Assembly: GCA_035358815.1 (NCBI GenBank) | Contig: DAOPQC010000009.1 | Location: 2,405 to 66,404, forward strand | Direction of reading: 5' to 3' | Source: Thermoanaerobaculales bacterium | Lineage (GTDB): Bacteria > Acidobacteriota > Thermoanaerobaculia > Thermoanaerobaculales > Sulfomarinibacteraceae | DNA: 64,000 nt | Shown: one piece after another, positions 32,759 through 55,857 of the stretch | How the letters are laid out: each line of letters begins with the position of its first letter | Position numbering within the stretch: the stretch's first letter is position 1 | Notes under the pieces: generated by a model | The model's input: only the letters and a program-made list of their open reading frames with translations | What the model was told of the DNA's origin: nothing | Database searches by the model: none | Program-made: the position numbers and the translations under genes

Positions 32759-33045
32759 TCAATTCCGGGCTCAATTCCGGGCTCCAGACCCCGTTTCGAT
32801 TCCGGACTCTGGGCCGGTGCCCGTCCCCGCTTCCGCTTCCCCTTCCGCTTCCGCGCCCGGACGGTGCTCAGGACGCGGGAAAGCTGCGGGGGTCTTCGAC
32901 TTGCCACCGTGCTGGGCGGTTCGCTTCCAATGACCTACCCCCCAGGTCATCGGTGACCTTGTCGGCCCACACGGGCCCTGGGGGTGCTCAGAATGACCAC
33001 GGACAGAGTCGGAAGCGGGCGCGGAAGCGGGCGCGGACGCGGGCC
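32759..33045. repeat. Mosaic intergenic repeat locus B (12-nt tandem, C-arm, 150-nt core with hairpin, G-arm)
   Basis: tcaattccgggc x2 at 32759-32782. C-arm CGCTTCC-type at 32818-32858. Core hairpin atgacct/aggtcat at 32930-32950. G-arm at 33011-33045. Its bases 33017-33043 are the exact reverse complement of 29079-29105. Confidence 0.85.
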
Positions 33046-33077
33046 GGTCGGCCGACCCAACCTCCGGCCCCCACGGC

Positions 33078-33908
33078 CTACCGGATGGTCATCCCCAGCG
33101 AGCGCAGCCGCTCCCGAGCGAGGTCGGCCTCGCGGCTGCCCGGGTGCTCGTAGACCACGTACTGCAGGTTGAGCACTCCCTGCCCCTTGTCGCCCAGCTT
33201 GAGGTAGAGCAGGCCCTTCTTGAGCTGGGCGGCGGGCGCCTTGTCGCTCGCCGGGTACTCCTCCAGCACCTGGTCGAAGATCGCGAGCGCCTCCTCGGAC
33301 TTGTCCTGGGCGTCGAGGCACTCGCCGATCCAGTACAGCGCGTTGTCCGACAGCTCGGTCGAGGGCCAGCGCCGCCGGTACTCGCCGAAGCCGTCAGCGG
33401 CGAGGTCGTAGTTGCCGCGCATGTAGTCCTCATAGGCCGCGCGGTAGAGCTCCTCCGGAGATGACGCCGCGGCGGAACCGGCCGCGGCGCCGTCCGGCGG
33501 GACGGCCGCGCCGCCCTCGCCGCCGGGCGCAGGTCCGGCGGCGGTCACCGGCGGCAGGTACTGGCCGGTCGCAGCGGCGGACCGAGCCCTGGCGAGCTCC
33601 TGGGAGATCGCCTCGAGGCGCGTGGTCGTCCGCTCCAGGCTGGCGTCGAGCGCCTCGATCTGCTCCTGGAGCTGCTCGACCCGCATCGCCAGGTCGGCGT
33701 TGGAGCGGGAGGTCTGGGCCGCGCCCTCCTGCAGCTGGCGCTTGATCGCGTCGAGGTCCTGCTTCGCCGGCATCGACTGCGACAGCTGCTCGACCTGAAG
33801 CTGGACGTCGGCGATCTCGCGGTGGAGCAGGGTCATGTCCTCGGACGAGGTGCAGGCTGCAAGCGGCAGCAGCGGGAGAGTCAGGACCAGCGTCCACAGC
33901 ACTCGCAT
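33078..33908 (-). CDS. cpoB: Tol-Pal system protein YbgF/CpoB (coiled coil + TPR)
   Basis: Lipoprotein-like signal LPLLPLAAC. N-terminal coiled coil (QLQVEQLSQ...). C-terminal YbgF TPR block (YRAAYEDYMRGNYDLA...ALYWIGECL). Directly downstream of pal. Confidence 0.8.
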   Translation of the reverse strand: MRVLWTLVLTLPLLPLAACTSSEDMTLLHREIADVQLQVEQLSQSMPAKQDLDAIKRQLQEGAAQTSRSNADLAMRVEQLQEQIEALDASLERTTTRLEAISQELARARSAAATGQYLPPVTAAGPAPGGEGGAAVPPDGAAAGSAAASSPEELYRAAYEDYMRGNYDLAADGFGEYRRRWPSTELSDNALYWIGECLDAQDKSEEALAIFDQVLEEYPASDKAPAAQLKKGLLYLKLGDKGQGVLNLQYVVYEHPGSREADLARERLRSLGMTIR

Positions 33909-33918
33909 CGCGAGCCTC

Positions 33919-34500
33919 CTAGCGCGCGGTGATGACGAAGTGGGCGCGCCGGTTGAGGCGCCACGCCTGTTCGCCGCTGCCGACCTCGAACGGCCTCTCC
34001 TCGCCGTACGAGATCGTGCGCAGGCGCTCGGCCCCGACGCCGAGGAAGATCAGGTAGTCGCGCACCGCCGCCGCCCGGCGCTCACCGAGCGCGAGGTTGT
34101 ACTCGCGTGTGTTGCGTTCGTCGCAGTGGCCCTCGATCAGGATCTGGATCGTGCGGTGCTGCTGCAGCCAGGCCGCGTTGCGGGCCAGCGCATCGCGGTA
34201 CTCGGGCTTGATGTCGTAGAGGTTGGTGTCGAAGAAGATGTCCTCGAGGTAGCCGCCGGCGTTGAGCAGCGCGAGGTCCTCGGGCAGCTCTTCGCGGACC
34301 TCCTCGGAAACCAGGGGCTCGGCAGTCGGCTCGCCGACGATCTCCTCCTCGATGCCCTCGGGCCCCTCACCGGTCCCGGGCGTGGTCGCGGTCGGCGTCG
34401 GAGCGGTCGGGGGCGGCACCTTGGTGCTCTTGCAGGCACCGAGGGTGGCCAGGAGGAGCACGGCGATCAGGGCTGCAGCGAGACGGGAAGTGGGTCTCAT
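33919..34500 (-). CDS. pal: Peptidoglycan-associated lipoprotein Pal (OmpA-like domain)
   Basis: Lipobox LLATLGAC. OmpA-C motifs: IFFDTNLYDIKPEY, IEGHCDERNTREYNLALGERRA, and ISYGEE. Confidence 0.9.
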   Translation of the reverse strand: MRPTSRLAAALIAVLLLATLGACKSTKVPPPTAPTPTATTPGTGEGPEGIEEEIVGEPTAEPLVSEEVREELPEDLALLNAGGYLEDIFFDTNLYDIKPEYRDALARNAAWLQQHRTIQILIEGHCDERNTREYNLALGERRAAAVRDYLIFLGVGAERLRTISYGEERPFEVGSGEQAWRLNRRAHFVITAR

Positions 34501-34627
34501 TCGAGGCCTCCTTGACGGTCACTCTACCAGCCCGGATCCGGGCTCACAAGCTCTTGAGAGCTGGTCTCGGCGGGGCGGTGTGGAATCGACGCGCGATGTG
34601 CCCGATGTCACTGGAGGAGAGGATATA

Positions 34628-34768
34628 GGGGATAGGGAATAGGGGATAGGGGAGAGGGGAGAGGGGAGAGGGAACAGGGGATAGGGGAGAGGGAGTAGGG
34701 GAGAGGGCCTAGCTGCCTTGTGGGGTAGCCATCCTGGCTGCCTTGTGGGGTAGCCATCCTGGCTGCCC
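34628..34768. repeat. Mosaic intergenic repeat locus C (12 G-tracts in GGGGA(T/G)A heptamer array + 25-nt tandem repeat)
   Basis: 34628-34707 holds 12 runs of G3-4 separated by 3-4 nt. 34713-34762 is ctgccttgtggggtagccatcctgg x2 (period 25) plus a partial third unit. Confidence 0.9.
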
Positions 34769-34770
34769 AG

Positions 34771-35358
34771 CTACGGGTTCGCGTCGTCATCCGCGAGGAG
34801 CCCGCCGCCGGGACGGTCGAGCCGGCCGGCCCGGTGGAGCTTGGCGAGGTAGTCGTAGACGACGATCGAGCCGGCCACCGCGAGGTTGAGGGAGGGCACG
34901 AGGCCCCACTGCGGGATCTGGACGACGGTCGCCGCGGTCGCGACCAGCTCCTCGGGGATGCCGCCGAGCTCGGCCCCGACCAGGAAGCACGGGCGATCCG
35001 GGTAGCTCGCCTCGAACAGGCCGACCGCGCGCCGGTGCAGCTCCACCGCCACCAGCTGCCAGCCACGCTGCTCGAGGTGCGACCGGAAGGCGCCGGCGTC
35101 GCGAAGGTGGAGAACGGTGGTGTAGAGCTCGGCGGTGCGCGCGGCCTCGACGTTCCAGTCACGCTCCCCGACCAGCAGCACCTCGGTCGCGGCGGTGGCG
35201 TGGGCGGTGCGCACCAGCGAGCCGACGTTGTGCTCCTTGGAGATGTTCCAGGCCGCGATGGCGAACGGCCGCAGCCCGTCGCGGTAGTCCTGGCGGCGGC
35301 GCTGCCGGCGGTCGGCGCGGCGCGCGGCGGTCCACGCGGCCTTCTTGGGATCCACCAT
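34771..35358 (-). CDS. TrmH/SpoU-family RNA 2'-O-methyltransferase
   Basis: SpoU motifs: NVGSLVRTA, FLVGAELGGIPEE, and IPQWGLVPSLNLAVAGSIVVYD. Confidence 0.75.
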   Translation of the reverse strand: MVDPKKAAWTAARRADRRQRRRQDYRDGLRPFAIAAWNISKEHNVGSLVRTAHATAATEVLLVGERDWNVEAARTAELYTTVLHLRDAGAFRSHLEQRGWQLVAVELHRRAVGLFEASYPDRPCFLVGAELGGIPEELVATAATVVQIPQWGLVPSLNLAVAGSIVVYDYLAKLHRAGRLDRPGGGLLADDDANP

Positions 35359-35398
35359 CGGACCCAGGGTAGAGCATGCGGCCGCCGCCGGGAACCAC

Positions 35399-35434
35399 AG
35401 AAAAAACGAAACCCCGCGCGCGGCGGGATTTCGT
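35399..35434 (-). terminator. Rho-independent terminator
   Basis: The minus strand reads acgaaatcccgcc-gcgc-gcggggtttcgt followed by TTTTTT. That is a ~12-bp GC-rich stem and a 6-T run. Confidence 0.75.
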
Positions 35435-35514
35435 CATGGTGGGTATCCCCACCCGGACTTCTTCAGTGGGTTTCGCGGCCGTAAAGTCCGTTGAACACCC
35501 GCGGTCCGAAGGGA
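35400..35514 (-). ncRNA. Candidate ~115-nt structured RNA or attenuating leader (family unknown)
   Basis: Bracketed by the promoter and terminator above. Internal helices: gtcc/ggac, cggactt/aagtccg (7 bp), and ggtggg-gata-cccacc. No convincing ORF. Confidence 0.35.
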
Positions 35515-35521
35515 CACCTCC

Positions 35522-35550
35522 AATATGTGTGCACGCCGCGGCTGTGTCAA
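35522..35550 (-). promoter_or_regulatory. Candidate sigma-70-type promoter
   Basis: On the minus strand: TTGACA (35550-35545), a 17-nt spacer, then CATATT (35527-22). Located inside the cdd/trmH-like gap. Confidence 0.45.
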
Positions 35551-35652
35551 GGGGGCGTGGGAGCTCGTCTTCGGGAGCGAATCCGACCGCGCCGACGGTG
35601 AGACTCCCGGCCGCTGGATGAGCTTGGCTGCAGGCCTCGATCTGCCCGGGGA

Positions 35653-36063
35653 TCAGCCGCGCTCGAGCGTCCGCCCGTCGAAGGCGTGGGGCAGCAGCTG
35701 GGACACCGAGGTGACGACCCGTTCACCGGCCGGGTTGGCCAGGATGACCGGGAAGTCACCGAACTCCGACAGCACCTGCCGGCAGGCGCCGCACGGCGAG
35801 GCCGGCGGCACGGAGTCCGTGACCACGGCGAGCGCCTGGAAGCGGCGAGCGCCGGCGGCCACGGCCGCCGCCACCGCGTTCCGCTCGGCGCAGACCGAGA
35901 GGCCGAACGAGGCGTTCTCGACGTTGCAGCCGCTGCTCAACCGTCGGTCCGGCAGCAGCAGCGCCGCTCCGACCCGAAACTGCGAGTAGGGGGCGTAGGC
36001 GTGGTCCCGCGCCGCGGTGGCCGCTGCGACCAGGCGGTCGATGTCATCAGAAGAGAAATCCAT
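35653..36063 (-). CDS. cdd: Cytidine deaminase
   Basis: ATG 36063. Zinc motifs CAERNA and PCGACRQ. The upstream 46 codons of the track ORF run through repeat DNA. Confidence 0.85.
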   Translation of the reverse strand: MDFSSDDIDRLVAAATAARDHAYAPYSQFRVGAALLLPDRRLSSGCNVENASFGLSVCAERNAVAAAVAAGARRFQALAVVTDSVPPASPCGACRQVLSEFGDFPVILANPAGERVVTSVSQLLPHAFDGRTLERG

Positions 36064-36125
36064 GGCTCCATGATACCGAGCCGAATGAGGTGCGGAGCGC
36101 CCGTTGTCGATTCTGACCTTCTCTC

Positions 36126-36278
36126 GGGAACGGGAACGGGGACGGGAACGACAGCTGGCCGTTGTGGGGTCGCCATCCTGGCTGCCTTGTGGGGTAGCCA
36201 TCCTGGCTGCCCGGAAGCGGGCGCGGGCGAGGGGGCGGGCGGGGGCCCTACCCCCTATTCCCTACATCCCATCCCCTC
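36126..36278. repeat. Mosaic intergenic repeat locus D (alpha G-array, 25-nt tandem, beta G-array, inverted gamma array)
   Basis: gggaacgggaacggggacgggaac at 36126-36149. 36153-36212 is ~95% identical to 34711-34768. ggaagcgggcgcgggcgagggggcgggcggggg at 36213-36245. C-rich ccctaccccctattccctacatcccatcccctc at 36246-36278. Confidence 0.9.
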
Positions 36279-36281
36279 AAG

Positions 36282-36307
36282 AAAAAGGTGACCGCCCGAA
36301 GGCGGTC
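36282..36307 (-). terminator. Probable Rho-independent terminator of the FecR-like gene
   Basis: The minus strand reads gaccgcc-ttcg-ggcggtc, then acc and TTTTTCTT. It lies 40 nt past the stop at 36347. Confidence 0.55.
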
Positions 36308-36346
36308 GATGGAGACGTGTGATGTCGCTTGAGGATCTGGCTGTCG

Positions 36347-38491
36347 TCACCGCCGGTGAGAACCGGACGACGGTCGCGAGCTCGTCGCCCCGCCGCCGGA
36401 GCTCCCCGCGTGCGATCGGGAGGTCGCGCCGCTCCCGGCCGAGCGGGGCGCTGACGAGGAACCGCGAGCCGAGGCCGTCGGGTTGCGAGGCGCGGGCCGG
36501 CTCGAGCTGACGGTCGGGCCGGTGCGGGACGGCGCGGAGCGCGGCACGATCACCGGGCTCTGCGATCCGCCGCCACCTGCCGGCCCCGGCATCACCCGGC
36601 TGCTCGGCGCTCGGTAGCGGGAGCCCAGGTCGACCGGCTGCCGGGCGAGGCTGCCGCCCCTCAGGTAGGGGGACGCAGCCTGCGCGCCTGACGGGCTCCC
36701 GGCCGACGCCGGCCGTGACCGCGGAACGAAGGGGTTGCTGGCGACGGACCCGCTGTGGACCCGGCTGTTCGTCCCCCCGCCGGTGGACGGGCGAGCCGTG
36801 CCTGCTGCCGGCTGCCCGGAACCCCCGTGCAGGGGCGACGACGGCGACGTGGTCAGCACGCGCCGGTCGGTGGCCGTCTCCGCGGCCCGGGGGGCCGCGG
36901 TCCCGCGCGCCGCGGTTGAGCCGGCCGCCGTCTCGCGAGGCGCGTTGGTGCGGACCGTCGTGCTCCGCGATCCGGCCGAGCGCCGCGTGACCGCCTCGAG
37001 GGTCGTCGGCTCGACGAGCCGCAGCGCGTCCTCGCCGCGCAGGCTCGCGTCGCGCGCCATGACCGGTGTGATGTCGCGGGTGGTGCCGCGCTCGACGTCG
37101 CGGAAGACCCGCTCGAGCTCGGCTGACGGGCGCGCCATCGACGGCGGCGCGGTGGCCAGGGCATCGGACATGACGACGCCCATGGCGTCCTGGCCGCGCA
37201 GCGCGCTCTCGCCCGGCTGCACGAGCCGGGACAGGTGCGGGCTCGCGAAGTCCCGGGTCGAGATGACGTTCCAACCGGCGCGGTCGATCCCGGCCACGCG
37301 CACCCGGCCCTTGAGATCGAGCGCCACCTCGTTCGGCCGGGTGATCGCGGCGCGATGGACGTCTCTCGCGGACCCGCCTTCGCCCCCGCTGCCCGGGCGC
37401 GGAATCGCGTCCCGCCGCGGCGGCTGGCCTCCCCCGCCGCCGGGGTGGCCGGGGTAAGGATCGTAGGGGTAGCCGTAGTAGTAGCCGTAGCTCGGCCAGT
37501 ACCATCCCCAGTAGTAGCCGCACGGGGCCCAGCCGACGTAGCCGGGCCACCAGCACCAGCTCACCCAGGCCGGGCTCCAGTAGGGCTGCCAGCCCCAGAC
37601 CCAGCCGAAGCCGGCAGCGAAGTACCACGAGCCGTAGTGGTACGGCAGCCAGCCCCAGGGCTCGTAGGAGATCCACGACCATCCGGGCTCGGTCCAGTAC
37701 CAGCGCCCGGCGGTGTAGGGACGCCACGAGTCGTCCACGGTCGGCTGCCAGGCCCAGGTGTTGTACTCGGAGACGTAGACCCAGTTGCCGTAGTTGTCGA
37801 GCTGGGCGGCCTGGCGGTCGTAGCGGGCGTCGACGTGGACCGCGCTCTCGCCGCGGATGACCTGCCGGCGCTGCTCGACCCAGCTTGCGAAGTCGTCGCC
37901 GATGTTCAGCACGGACTCGGAGCCGACCACCTCGCCGCCGCTCACCAGGGTCGCTGACTGGGCGCGCACGAGCACGCCGCCCGCGATGGTGGAGGCCTCG
38001 GCGAGCCCTTCCCACACCTCGACCCGGAGGCCCTCGGAGGGCAGCGCCTCCACCCGGTAAAGCCCGGTGTCGTTGAGGTAGACGGTGGCGGACCGGCCAT
38101 CGATGCGGACCGGCTGGTTGGTCAACCGATGGGGGCCGACCTCGACCACGATCGTGCCCTCGCCGAGGAACAGCACGGTCTGCTCGGCGTTGACGTCGCG
38201 GCTGAACGCCACGGCGTCGAGGCTAAGGGTCGTGTACTCGTCGATCCAGACCGCGTTCCCGTCGGCGAGCATGACCTCCATCCGCGCCTCGCGGGCGGTG
38301 TCGATGCGGTCCCCCGGAGCGAGCGGCATGTTGATGACGGCCTCGATGCTGTCCTGCTGGGTCGCCGGCTGGACGGTGGCGTAGCGCTCGAGGTAGGAGA
38401 TGTAGCTCAGCGAGGTCAGCTCGTCCCCTTCGGAGGCCAGCAGCGGCCCCGCGACCCCGGCCAGGAGTGCCGTCAGTAGGAGCTTCCTCAT
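36347..38491 (-). CDS. FecR-like domain protein with extreme W/Y-rich segment and ~330-aa low-complexity tail
   Basis: ATG 38491 follows gggaggtgg. Signal peptide MRKLLLTALLAGVAGPLLA. FecR-like beta-rich N-terminal domain. A W/Y/G-rich block (WYWTEPGWSWISYEPWGWLPYHYGSWY...GYYWGWYWPSYGYYYGYPYDPYPG), then an S/P/R/A-rich tail. Confidence 0.6.
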   Translation of the reverse strand: MRKLLLTALLAGVAGPLLASEGDELTSLSYISYLERYATVQPATQQDSIEAVINMPLAPGDRIDTAREARMEVMLADGNAVWIDEYTTLSLDAVAFSRDVNAEQTVLFLGEGTIVVEVGPHRLTNQPVRIDGRSATVYLNDTGLYRVEALPSEGLRVEVWEGLAEASTIAGGVLVRAQSATLVSGGEVVGSESVLNIGDDFASWVEQRRQVIRGESAVHVDARYDRQAAQLDNYGNWVYVSEYNTWAWQPTVDDSWRPYTAGRWYWTEPGWSWISYEPWGWLPYHYGSWYFAAGFGWVWGWQPYWSPAWVSWCWWPGYVGWAPCGYYWGWYWPSYGYYYGYPYDPYPGHPGGGGGQPPRRDAIPRPGSGGEGGSARDVHRAAITRPNEVALDLKGRVRVAGIDRAGWNVISTRDFASPHLSRLVQPGESALRGQDAMGVVMSDALATAPPSMARPSAELERVFRDVERGTTRDITPVMARDASLRGEDALRLVEPTTLEAVTRRSAGSRSTTVRTNAPRETAAGSTAARGTAAPRAAETATDRRVLTTSPSSPLHGGSGQPAAGTARPSTGGGTNSRVHSGSVASNPFVPRSRPASAGSPSGAQAASPYLRGGSLARQPVDLGSRYRAPSSRVMPGPAGGGGSQSPVIVPRSAPSRTGPTVSSSRPAPRNPTASARGSSSAPRSAGSGATSRSHAGSSGGGATSSRPSSGSHRR

Positions 38492-55684: not shown

Positions 55685-55759
55685 GGGAGGTTAGCTCAGG
55701 GGTAGAGCACCTGCCTTACACGCAGGGAGTCGTGGGTTCAAATCCCCCACCTCCCACCA
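55685..55759 (+). tRNA. tRNA-Val (anticodon TAC)
   Basis: Cloverleaf: acceptor gggaggt/acctccc, D-arm gctcaggggtagagc, anticodon stem cctgc/gcagg with loop ctTACac, T-arm gtggg-ttcaaat-cccac region, encoded CCA. Confidence 0.9.
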
Positions 55760-55780
55760 CCCCTGAGACGGCACGATTGC

Positions 55781-55857
55781 GGGGTCGTAGTTCAGCTGGT
55801 TAGAACGCCGGCCTGTCACGCCGGAGGTCGAGGGTTCGAGTCCCTTCGGCCCCGCCA
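55781..55857 (+). tRNA. tRNA-Asp (anticodon GTC)
   Basis: Acceptor ggggtcg/cggcccc, D-arm gttcagctggttagaac, anticodon stem ccggc/gccgg with loop ctGTCac, T-arm gaggg-ttcgagt-ccctt, discriminator G, encoded CCA. Confidence 0.9.

Follow-up and report, generated by a model that had tools for sequence, protein, structure and literature searches.

The locus raises the question of what a compact unit on the minus strand, made up of a promoter, a run of predicted hairpins and a terminator, does in the gap between a cytidine deaminase gene and an RNA methyltransferase gene. The sequence-only reading offered two answers, an independent small RNA or a transcription-attenuating leader or riboswitch that controls the methyltransferase, and it noted that the terminator might serve only as the 3′ end of the deaminase gene. 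From the window (the whole 64-kb stretch of DNA that was analyzed) and a set of homologous loci, we conclude that the unit is probably a stand-alone small RNA gene of ∼115 nt that comprises a promoter of its own, a core with a pseudoknot, and a terminator, and that it is conserved across Thermoanaerobaculia. This assignment draws on comparative sequence analysis, and the evidence for it is set out below together with the readings that compete with it.

The unit begins with a single promoter-like site. A promoter scan scores TTGACA-17-CATATT on the minus strand at 10 of 12 consensus positions, and within the scanned range, 33000–38000, this is the one sigma-70-like site returned, versus 0.2 ± 0.5 sites in shuffled sequence. 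Its hexamers, its spacing within 16–18 nt and its conserved position among homologues are those expected of a sigma-70 promoter. At the other end, the terminator scan reports a stem at 35435–35405 with 13 pairs (7 of them G-C), a 5-nt loop, and then a T run; a count by hand gives a 12-pair stem at 35434–35406 followed by T6 at 35406–35401. Both describe a G+C-rich stem-loop with a U-tract, consistent with an intrinsic terminator, and from the end of the T run it is 40 nt to the ATG of the SpoU-family ORF at 35358. The 12-bp stem, the T6 run, and the distance to the ATG given by the sequence-only reading are all recovered here. The 122-nt transcript folds better than 200 of 200 dinucleotide shuffles (z = −3.07).

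The flanking genes had been called cdd and trmH-like. The first name stands, since the gene upstream of the RNA encodes a tetrameric-type cytidine deaminase (NCBIfam equivalog, 145 bits vs a cutoff of 74). The second has to be loosened: the 195-aa protein encoded downstream is a SpoU-family methyltransferase (Pfam SpoU_methylase, 85 bits) that reaches 62 bits against the NCBIfam TrmH equivalog cutoff of 227 and is also under the equivalog cutoffs of RlmB, TrmL, and TrmJ. Judged by its sequence, it is merely TrmH-like, a SpoU-family methyltransferase below every equivalog cutoff tested. Beyond spoU lie pal, cpoB/ybgF, and rpsT. The same neighborhood contains several repeats. Tandem copies of a 25-nt unit, TTGTGGGGTAGCCATCCTGGCTGCC, occur in two intergenic regions, spoU-pal and fecR-cdd (within 34602–34777 and 36162–36246), which bracket the block of cdd, RNA, and spoU, and G-rich tandem repeats of 7 or 14 nt (GGGGATAGGG...) are found at 34602–34721. 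On the minus strand, another hairpin of terminator type (GACCGCCTTCGGGCGGTC with a weak T-tract) is located at 36290–36307, close to the 3′ end of FecR/DUF6600.

Comparison with known RNA families gave no identity for the unit. Rfam 15 has no match there at gathering thresholds, and a cmscan search of 35250–35700 with its 4227 models at E ≤ 10 returned chance matches alone (E > 1); the top one is the Pseudomonas rnk leader RF01772, at 18.2 bits vs a gathering threshold of 55 (E = 1.3). When 10 divergent homologous loci were searched at E ≤ 1, the one family returned was RsmY, matching at the level of the terminator (20 bits vs 57). We therefore set aside the permissive matches to the rnk leader, RsmY, and istR as chance or terminator-level. 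No family threshold in Rfam 15 is reached, whether for Acido-1, Acido-Lenti-1, SRP, 6S, or any riboswitch or ribozyme class, which agrees with the earlier failure to place the unit with SRP, 6S, or a known riboswitch. The only matches at gathering thresholds in the window are two adjacent tRNA genes on the plus strand (55685–55854), and ARAGORN finds no tRNA or tmRNA gene in 35200–35750. Full-text searching of the literature yielded no description of the RNA, and no lineage-specific noncoding RNA for Thermoanaerobaculia was found described in the literature searched. The RNA family appears to be new and undescribed.

Homologous loci were gathered from genomes and from metagenomes. A first set of 56 genome loci, reached via relatives of the SpoU protein, comes from MAGs of the Acidobacteriota class Thermoanaerobaculia (labeled Sulfomarinibacteraceae, Thermoanaerobaculales, or “Holophagae”); the exceptions are two outgroup loci from Sumerlaeota and a handful that bear other labels. 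When the 171-nt unit was used as an nhmmer query, 43 of the 56 loci proved to contain it, promoter included, with E-values down to 1e-41. Metagenomes were scanned with a degenerate core pattern that excluded P1, the 5′ strand of P2, and the terminator; this returned at least 120 loci, and the full unit is present in 115 of 120 among the matches listed. In total, at least 160 homologous loci were collected from Thermoanaerobaculia genomes and metagenomes. The core pattern matched no viral contig, and thus nothing points to a mobile or phage origin. A covariance model built for the RNA, R1, has a single match in the window, at 35399–35521 (127 bits).

Of the ∼88 homologues for which the upstream region is available, essentially all carry the promoter at an unchanging distance from the RNA, whatever the genomic setting. 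The −10 hexamer is NANATT-like in nearly all of them (CATATT, GATATT, TACATT, GAGATT, GACATT), with two exceptions that read GAAACT or GAGACT. The 17-nt spacer is fixed in length and unconserved in sequence, and all sequence upstream of the promoter is unconserved as well. The transcript itself is ∼81% identical per column in the alignment of homologues, and the mean identity of core columns is 91% where paired vs 80% where unpaired. With the core at ∼90% identity vs 55–75% amino-acid identity for the flanking proteins, the RNA is, in these alignments, conserved more tightly than its protein-coding neighbors. One relative (L038) carries a degenerate second copy at 1982–2093 (54.8 bits, containing an N run), ∼75 nt downstream of the intact copy at 1785–1906, which is either a local tandem duplication or an assembly artifact. 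Contigs that start inside the RNA (L057, L078, L156, L173) were considered as possible transcript ends and rejected, since the breaks fall on both sides, as expected from assembly.

Two alignments were used to establish the structure, A2 (a MAFFT alignment of 43 sequences) and A3 (88 distinct sequences), and the resulting elements are listed in Table 1. In A2, 98.2% of cells are paired and 12 pairs show double changes, values reached by none of 500 shuffles, and slid controls are just 35–48% paired. In A3, 96.5% of cells are paired and 23 pairs show double changes, again matched by none of 500 shuffles. The covariation in homologous regions that the earlier reading had suggested looking for is thus present. 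RNAalifold independently gives P1, P2 (three pairs longer), P4, and P5. Three helices had been predicted before the terminator; the conserved ones are P1, P2, and P4, together with the pseudoknot helix P3, which had been missed.

Table 1. Predicted elements of the small RNA gene in the window, with the evidence for each
Feature	Position	Strand	Evidence
−35 hexamer TTGACA	35545–35550	−	promoter scan; same position in essentially all ∼88 homologues with upstream sequence
−10 hexamer CATATT, 17-nt spacer	35522–35527	−	promoter scan; homologues
Predicted transcription start, ∼35515	35513–35517	−	inferred: 6–8 nt past the −10, P1 begins at 35515
Predicted mature RNA, ∼115 nt	35400–35515	−	covariance model R1 match
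P1 hairpin, GUCC-CUUC-GGAC	35504–35515	−	compensatory changes in 4 of 4 pairs; paired cells 97.7% (A2), 95.6% (A3)
P2 5′ strand, CGCGG + GUG	35496–35503	−	pairs with 35474–35483; covariation
P2 3′ strand	35474–35483	−	covariation
P3 5′ strand, CGGACUU, inside P2 loop	35484–35490	−	pseudoknot with 35454–35460
P3 3′ strand, AAGUCCG	35454–35460	−	covariation
J2/3, conserved unpaired AAACCCACUGAAG, consensus RNA-CCMACUGMA	35461–35473	−	unpaired core columns, mean identity 0.80
P4 hairpin, GGUGGG-GAUA-CCCACC	35438–35453	−	97.7–100% of cells paired
P5 terminator hairpin, ACGAAAUCCCGC-loop-GCGGGGUUUCGU + U6	35401–35434	−	terminator scan; covariation

The core of the RNA is an H-type pseudoknot. P3 is a pseudoknot helix because its 5′ strand sits in the loop of P2, and both P2 (A2 columns 23–30/45–54) and P3 (38–44/69–75) covary. 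The changes in P2 include CGUGG/CCACG in L005 and an exchange at A3 columns 36–54 (UA in 50 sequences, CG in 28). P3, which is absent from the covariance model, has double changes in 5 of its 7 pairs in A2 and in 6 of 7 in A3, with compensatory replacement of GC by AU, CG by UA, and AU by UA or GC; one position tolerates A·C in 12–18 sequences. The third pair of P4 switches between U-A and C-G (CG 72, UA 16). In P5, the base of the stem, CGAAA/UUUCG, is almost invariant, with base pairs unchanged in 82–87 of the 88 sequences of A3, and the upper stem covaries in Thermoanaerobaculaceae, where CCCGC/GCGGG becomes CCCGG/CCGGG or CCCUG/CAGGG. U·G pairs occur in P5 at A3 columns 109–126 in 21 sequences. 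The U·G pairs of P5 and P2 fix the transcribed strand, because they would be C·A on the other one. In Thermoanaerobaculaceae the U-tract is degenerate (UUUCGCUGUG), the 3′ end there has the features of an intrinsic terminator only in part, and termination may consequently be weak, to judge from its sequence.

Several other interpretations of the transcript were discarded. The single-sequence minimum-energy fold pairs the 5′ end with 35440–35460 through a long-range helix that is unconserved, and the comparative model is preferred. A box C/D-like kink-turn formed by CUGA in J2/3 and GNGANGA before P5 was rejected because many members have CUGC in place of CUGA. CsrA-type GGA motifs were likewise dismissed: the conserved ACGGAC sits inside P3 and varies (ACGGUC, ACGAAC). 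As for a short ORF within the RNA, the AUG at 35437–35435 is unconserved and a GUG frame ends after 8 codons.

The block fecR/DUF6600, cdd, RNA, spoU, pal, cpoB, rpsT is syntenic over much of the class, so that adjacency of the RNA and spoU alone says little and the exceptions decide. Among the at least 160 loci listed, 18 of 160 were left unclassified, their contigs ending within 400 nt of the RNA, which leaves 142 with determinable context. A same-strand spoU follows the RNA in 116 of these, across a gap that ranges from ∼20 to ∼1000 nt, and in the other 26 of the listed loci the RNA lies elsewhere than upstream of spoU. In seven of the loci listed, the RNA is directly followed by a convergent PAS/GAF sensor gene (Pfam), whose stop codon in L065 (the same genome as L011) is 4 nt from the RNA 3′ end. 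In L100 this arrangement is found with cdd still upstream, which argues that it arose by insertion between the RNA and spoU. The RNA had seemed to be absent from L011, L023, L025, L041, and L048; this was an artifact of the 3-kb flank, which the same PAS/GAF gene fills. At 18 Thermoanaerobaculaceae loci among those listed (assigned to the family from NCBI protein names of close homologues; for example, L181, GCA_035517415.1), the RNA lies between a Gfo/Idh/MocA oxidoreductase gene and a gene for a membrane protein of ∼150–170 aa. In L105, L148, and L107, a TTGACC-N16-18-TAGCAT-like site is located between the RNA and the membrane-protein ORF, and the product of that ORF has no Pfam match in these three loci. 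They also have a small PGPGW-family gene convergent to the membrane-protein gene. At one locus (L149), the RNA diverges from spoU. The three genomic settings of the RNA have no neighboring gene in common. Joint inversion of the RNA and spoU relative to pal-cpoB is seen in L058/L142 and in L151. Finally, three genomes of the class (L028, L043, L177) have the usual locus without the RNA, and in these either cdd lies next to spoU or there is an overlap between the oxidoreductase gene and the membrane-protein gene.

A reading in which a promoter-like site happens to precede a cdd terminator, without any RNA function, can be taken as refuted. High-GC sequence does form hairpins readily, and no other cdd terminator is visible; nevertheless, at least 160 loci conserve the unit, compensatory changes are seen in it, and it also occurs at loci that lack cdd. 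A more specific alternative is a leader that acts in cis (riboswitch or protein-mediated attenuator), in which the pseudoknot would sense a ligand or SpoU and P5 would gate spoU-pal-cpoB. A conserved pseudoknot followed by a terminator resembles an aptamer with its expression platform; the same-strand spoU that adjoins the RNA in the 116 listed loci, the joint inversions in L058, L142, and L151, and the 40-nt gap in the window, which has no obvious spoU promoter, fit such a leader, and GCGGG is present in both the 5′ strand of P2 and the 3′ strand of P5, so that the 5′ strand of P5 could pair with either. Yet a convergent PAS/GAF gene comes next at seven loci, at 18 others the RNA precedes an unrelated membrane-protein gene, with its own promoter-like site where inspected, and in L149 the RNA points away from spoU. 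The variable gap to spoU is a further difficulty, as is the fixed promoter distance, which is typical of small-RNA genes. Consistent placement in the 5′ UTR of related same-strand genes is not observed, with 26 of 142 listed loci elsewhere, and conservation of the “platform” equals that of the “aptamer”, which is not the pattern of riboswitches. Inspection of the alignments, short of an exhaustive search, revealed no conserved, mutually exclusive aptamer-terminator pairing; the candidate anti-terminator formed by GCGGG of P2 and CCCGC of P5 was rejected because P5 covaries (to CCCGG/CCGGG) and P2 does not follow. We consider a cis-acting leader improbable, and control of the methyltransferase by such a leader finds no support as a general function of the unit. 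The stand-alone gene is favored over a switch dedicated to spoU because the promoter is kept in all settings, P5 is conserved, and the anti-terminator partner does not follow its changes. The other half of the earlier proposal, an independent small RNA, is supported by the conserved promoter and 3′ hairpin and by the loci where no same-strand gene follows or where the next gene has a separate promoter-like site.

Two further readings accept a stand-alone RNA and differ in what it does. In one, a leaky terminator would let the RNA promoter also supply spoU (and pal-cpoB) transcripts, with no sensing involved. The RNA promoter is the only sigma-70-like site found in 5 kb. No sigma-70-like promoter was found between the RNA and spoU in the window or in most cdd-RNA-spoU loci by a simple, crude scan in a class whose promoters are uncharacterized, and spoU may therefore depend on read-through from the RNA promoter. 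The joint inversions hold the RNA and spoU together, and the U-tracts are often interrupted (UUAUUUC or UAUGUC, for example). Against this, the terminator in the window is strong (12–13 bp stem, U6), six relatives have a promoter-like TTGACG/C-N17-CAnnnT site before spoU, the PAS/GAF-insertion loci and L149 indicate that expression of spoU does not require an upstream copy of the RNA, and the crudeness of the scan weakens the argument from missing promoters. We regard such dual use as possible although somewhat unlikely; in this lineage, read-through into spoU may be a secondary role that does not exclude the stand-alone one. In the other reading, the RNA would be a classical base-pairing small RNA of the Hfq/ProQ type that represses or activates mRNAs through a seed such as ACCCACUGAA in J2/3. 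In favor of this are a promoter belonging to the RNA itself, a conserved single-stranded stretch, and a terminator hairpin that ends in a U-tail, the module to which chaperones usually bind. However, near-invariance extends over stems, junctions, and the terminator stem although neutral positions have reached saturation, and the candidate seed is inside the pseudoknot, where it is probably structural. A partial antisense match of J2/3 to spoU start regions (UGCAGUGG) was rejected as inconsistent among species. No consistent base-pairing target was found in the loci examined, and conservation is spread over the whole RNA. Action by base pairing seems to us unlikely.

For the stand-alone small RNA gene that we prefer, the course of events would be as follows. 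Transcription would start at ∼35515 from the strong housekeeping-type sigma-70 promoter, and the transcript would fold into the 5′ hairpin P1, the H-type pseudoknot (P2 and P3, linked by a conserved strand rich in A and C), P4, and P5. P5 and its U-tract would then act as an intrinsic terminator and release an RNA of ∼115 nt near 35400, which probably accumulates as an abundant species. Because conservation extends to nearly every core nucleotide, inside and outside the helices alike, and the 3′ hairpin keeps both its sequence and its shape, we infer that the RNA acts in trans through its three-dimensional fold and not by means of a short antisense seed. RNAs that bind proteins or ligands typically have pseudoknotted cores. 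The partner would most likely be a protein, and less likely a small ligand; recognition by a protein through the RNA fold is our best guess, which we put forward tentatively. A bolder version, and to our minds a long shot, makes the RNA a functional partner of the adjacent SpoU-family 2′-O-methyltransferase (a cofactor, a guide-like specificity factor, or a substrate mimic) or, more broadly, the RNA subunit of a class-specific ribonucleoprotein or trans-acting sensor. Here, the Arg-rich N-terminal extension of SpoU would bind the pseudoknot, inversions in at least two lineages would have left the pair intact, and the loci where the two are separated would be secondary.

Among characterized RNAs, the closest parallels in kind are the lineage-restricted orphan structured RNAs that came from comparative genomics, such as Acido-1 (RF01686), Acido-Lenti-1 (RF01687), Bacteroidales-1, and Dictyoglomi-1 (Weinberg et al. 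2010, PMC2864571). Like these, the RNA described here is a stand-alone noncoding RNA of one lineage, supported by covariation and not bound to one downstream gene; it differs from them in its H-type pseudoknot, in an unusually invariant promoter and terminator, and in having no Rfam similarity. Acido-1 and Acido-Lenti-1 themselves (PMC2864571) were ruled out as its identity, since both are in Rfam, were tested, and are different families. The RNA is thus of a familiar kind, a lineage-restricted, stand-alone structured small RNA that is unusually well conserved. With the transcription-terminating riboswitches whose aptamers are H-type pseudoknots (SAM-II/V, preQ1-II, and fluoride) it has in common a compact, highly conserved pseudoknot core and, after it, an intrinsic terminator; in the window it also stands upstream of a gene for a SAM-dependent enzyme. 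Unlike those riboswitches, it is not consistently located in a 5′ UTR, its terminator is conserved in sequence, its promoter distance is fixed, and neither a conserved alternative pairing nor a covariance model match was found. The resemblance to the rnk leader RF01772 comes from the terminator AAAcCCCGC..GCGGGgUUU plus U-tract, which is similar to P5, but the terminator alone aligns.

A strong conserved sigma-70 promoter, a class-wide distribution, and probable protein binding recall 6S and 4.5S/SRP RNA, and the size is near the 100 nt of SRP RNA. The RNA nevertheless lacks the long interrupted hairpin, the SRP domain IV motif, and the 6S central bubble, and it has no Rfam match to either family at E ≤ 10. 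The octamer AGGUCCGG, common to this RNA and E. coli 4.5S RNA, was considered as a sign of SRP resemblance and rejected, as its structural context is not equivalent and there is no covariance model match.

Members of Thermoanaerobaculia abound in sediments and soils, and hardly any of them have been cultured. The alignment is ready for submission to Rfam, and the RNA can serve as a target for metatranscriptome mapping and as a candidate for protein pull-down or ligand screening. Were it to be linked to the neighboring SpoU enzyme, it would represent a new type of bacterial RNA-enzyme partnership; otherwise, it adds one more well-supported orphan to the bacterial structured RNAs.

The sequence between the RNA and spoU holds some minor features of its own. 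The TTGACG/C-N17-CAnnnT sites of L049, L039, L017, L009, L024, and L005 end 6–17 nt before the spoU start; as read from sequence, they would be spoU’s own promoters and would give leaderless or near-leaderless mRNAs. The window itself has a TACCCT that stops 7 nt short of the spoU ATG, with no −35 partner. Directly 3′ of the RNA, many relatives carry a perfect palindrome of 20–33 bp, GCAATTC...GAATTGC, which is absent from the window; carriers include L014 (∼2874–2922), L030, L031, L016, L010, L022, L006, and L032. Its interior differs by species and is always perfectly complementary, with the apex GTTTCGC-N3-GCGAAAC in Sulfomarinibacteraceae, and 110-nt stretches that contain it have predicted fold energies of about −44 to −69 kcal/mol. 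The palindrome ends 1–3 nt before the spoU GTG or ATG, and it could hide the ribosome-binding site or act as a palindrome at the DNA level.
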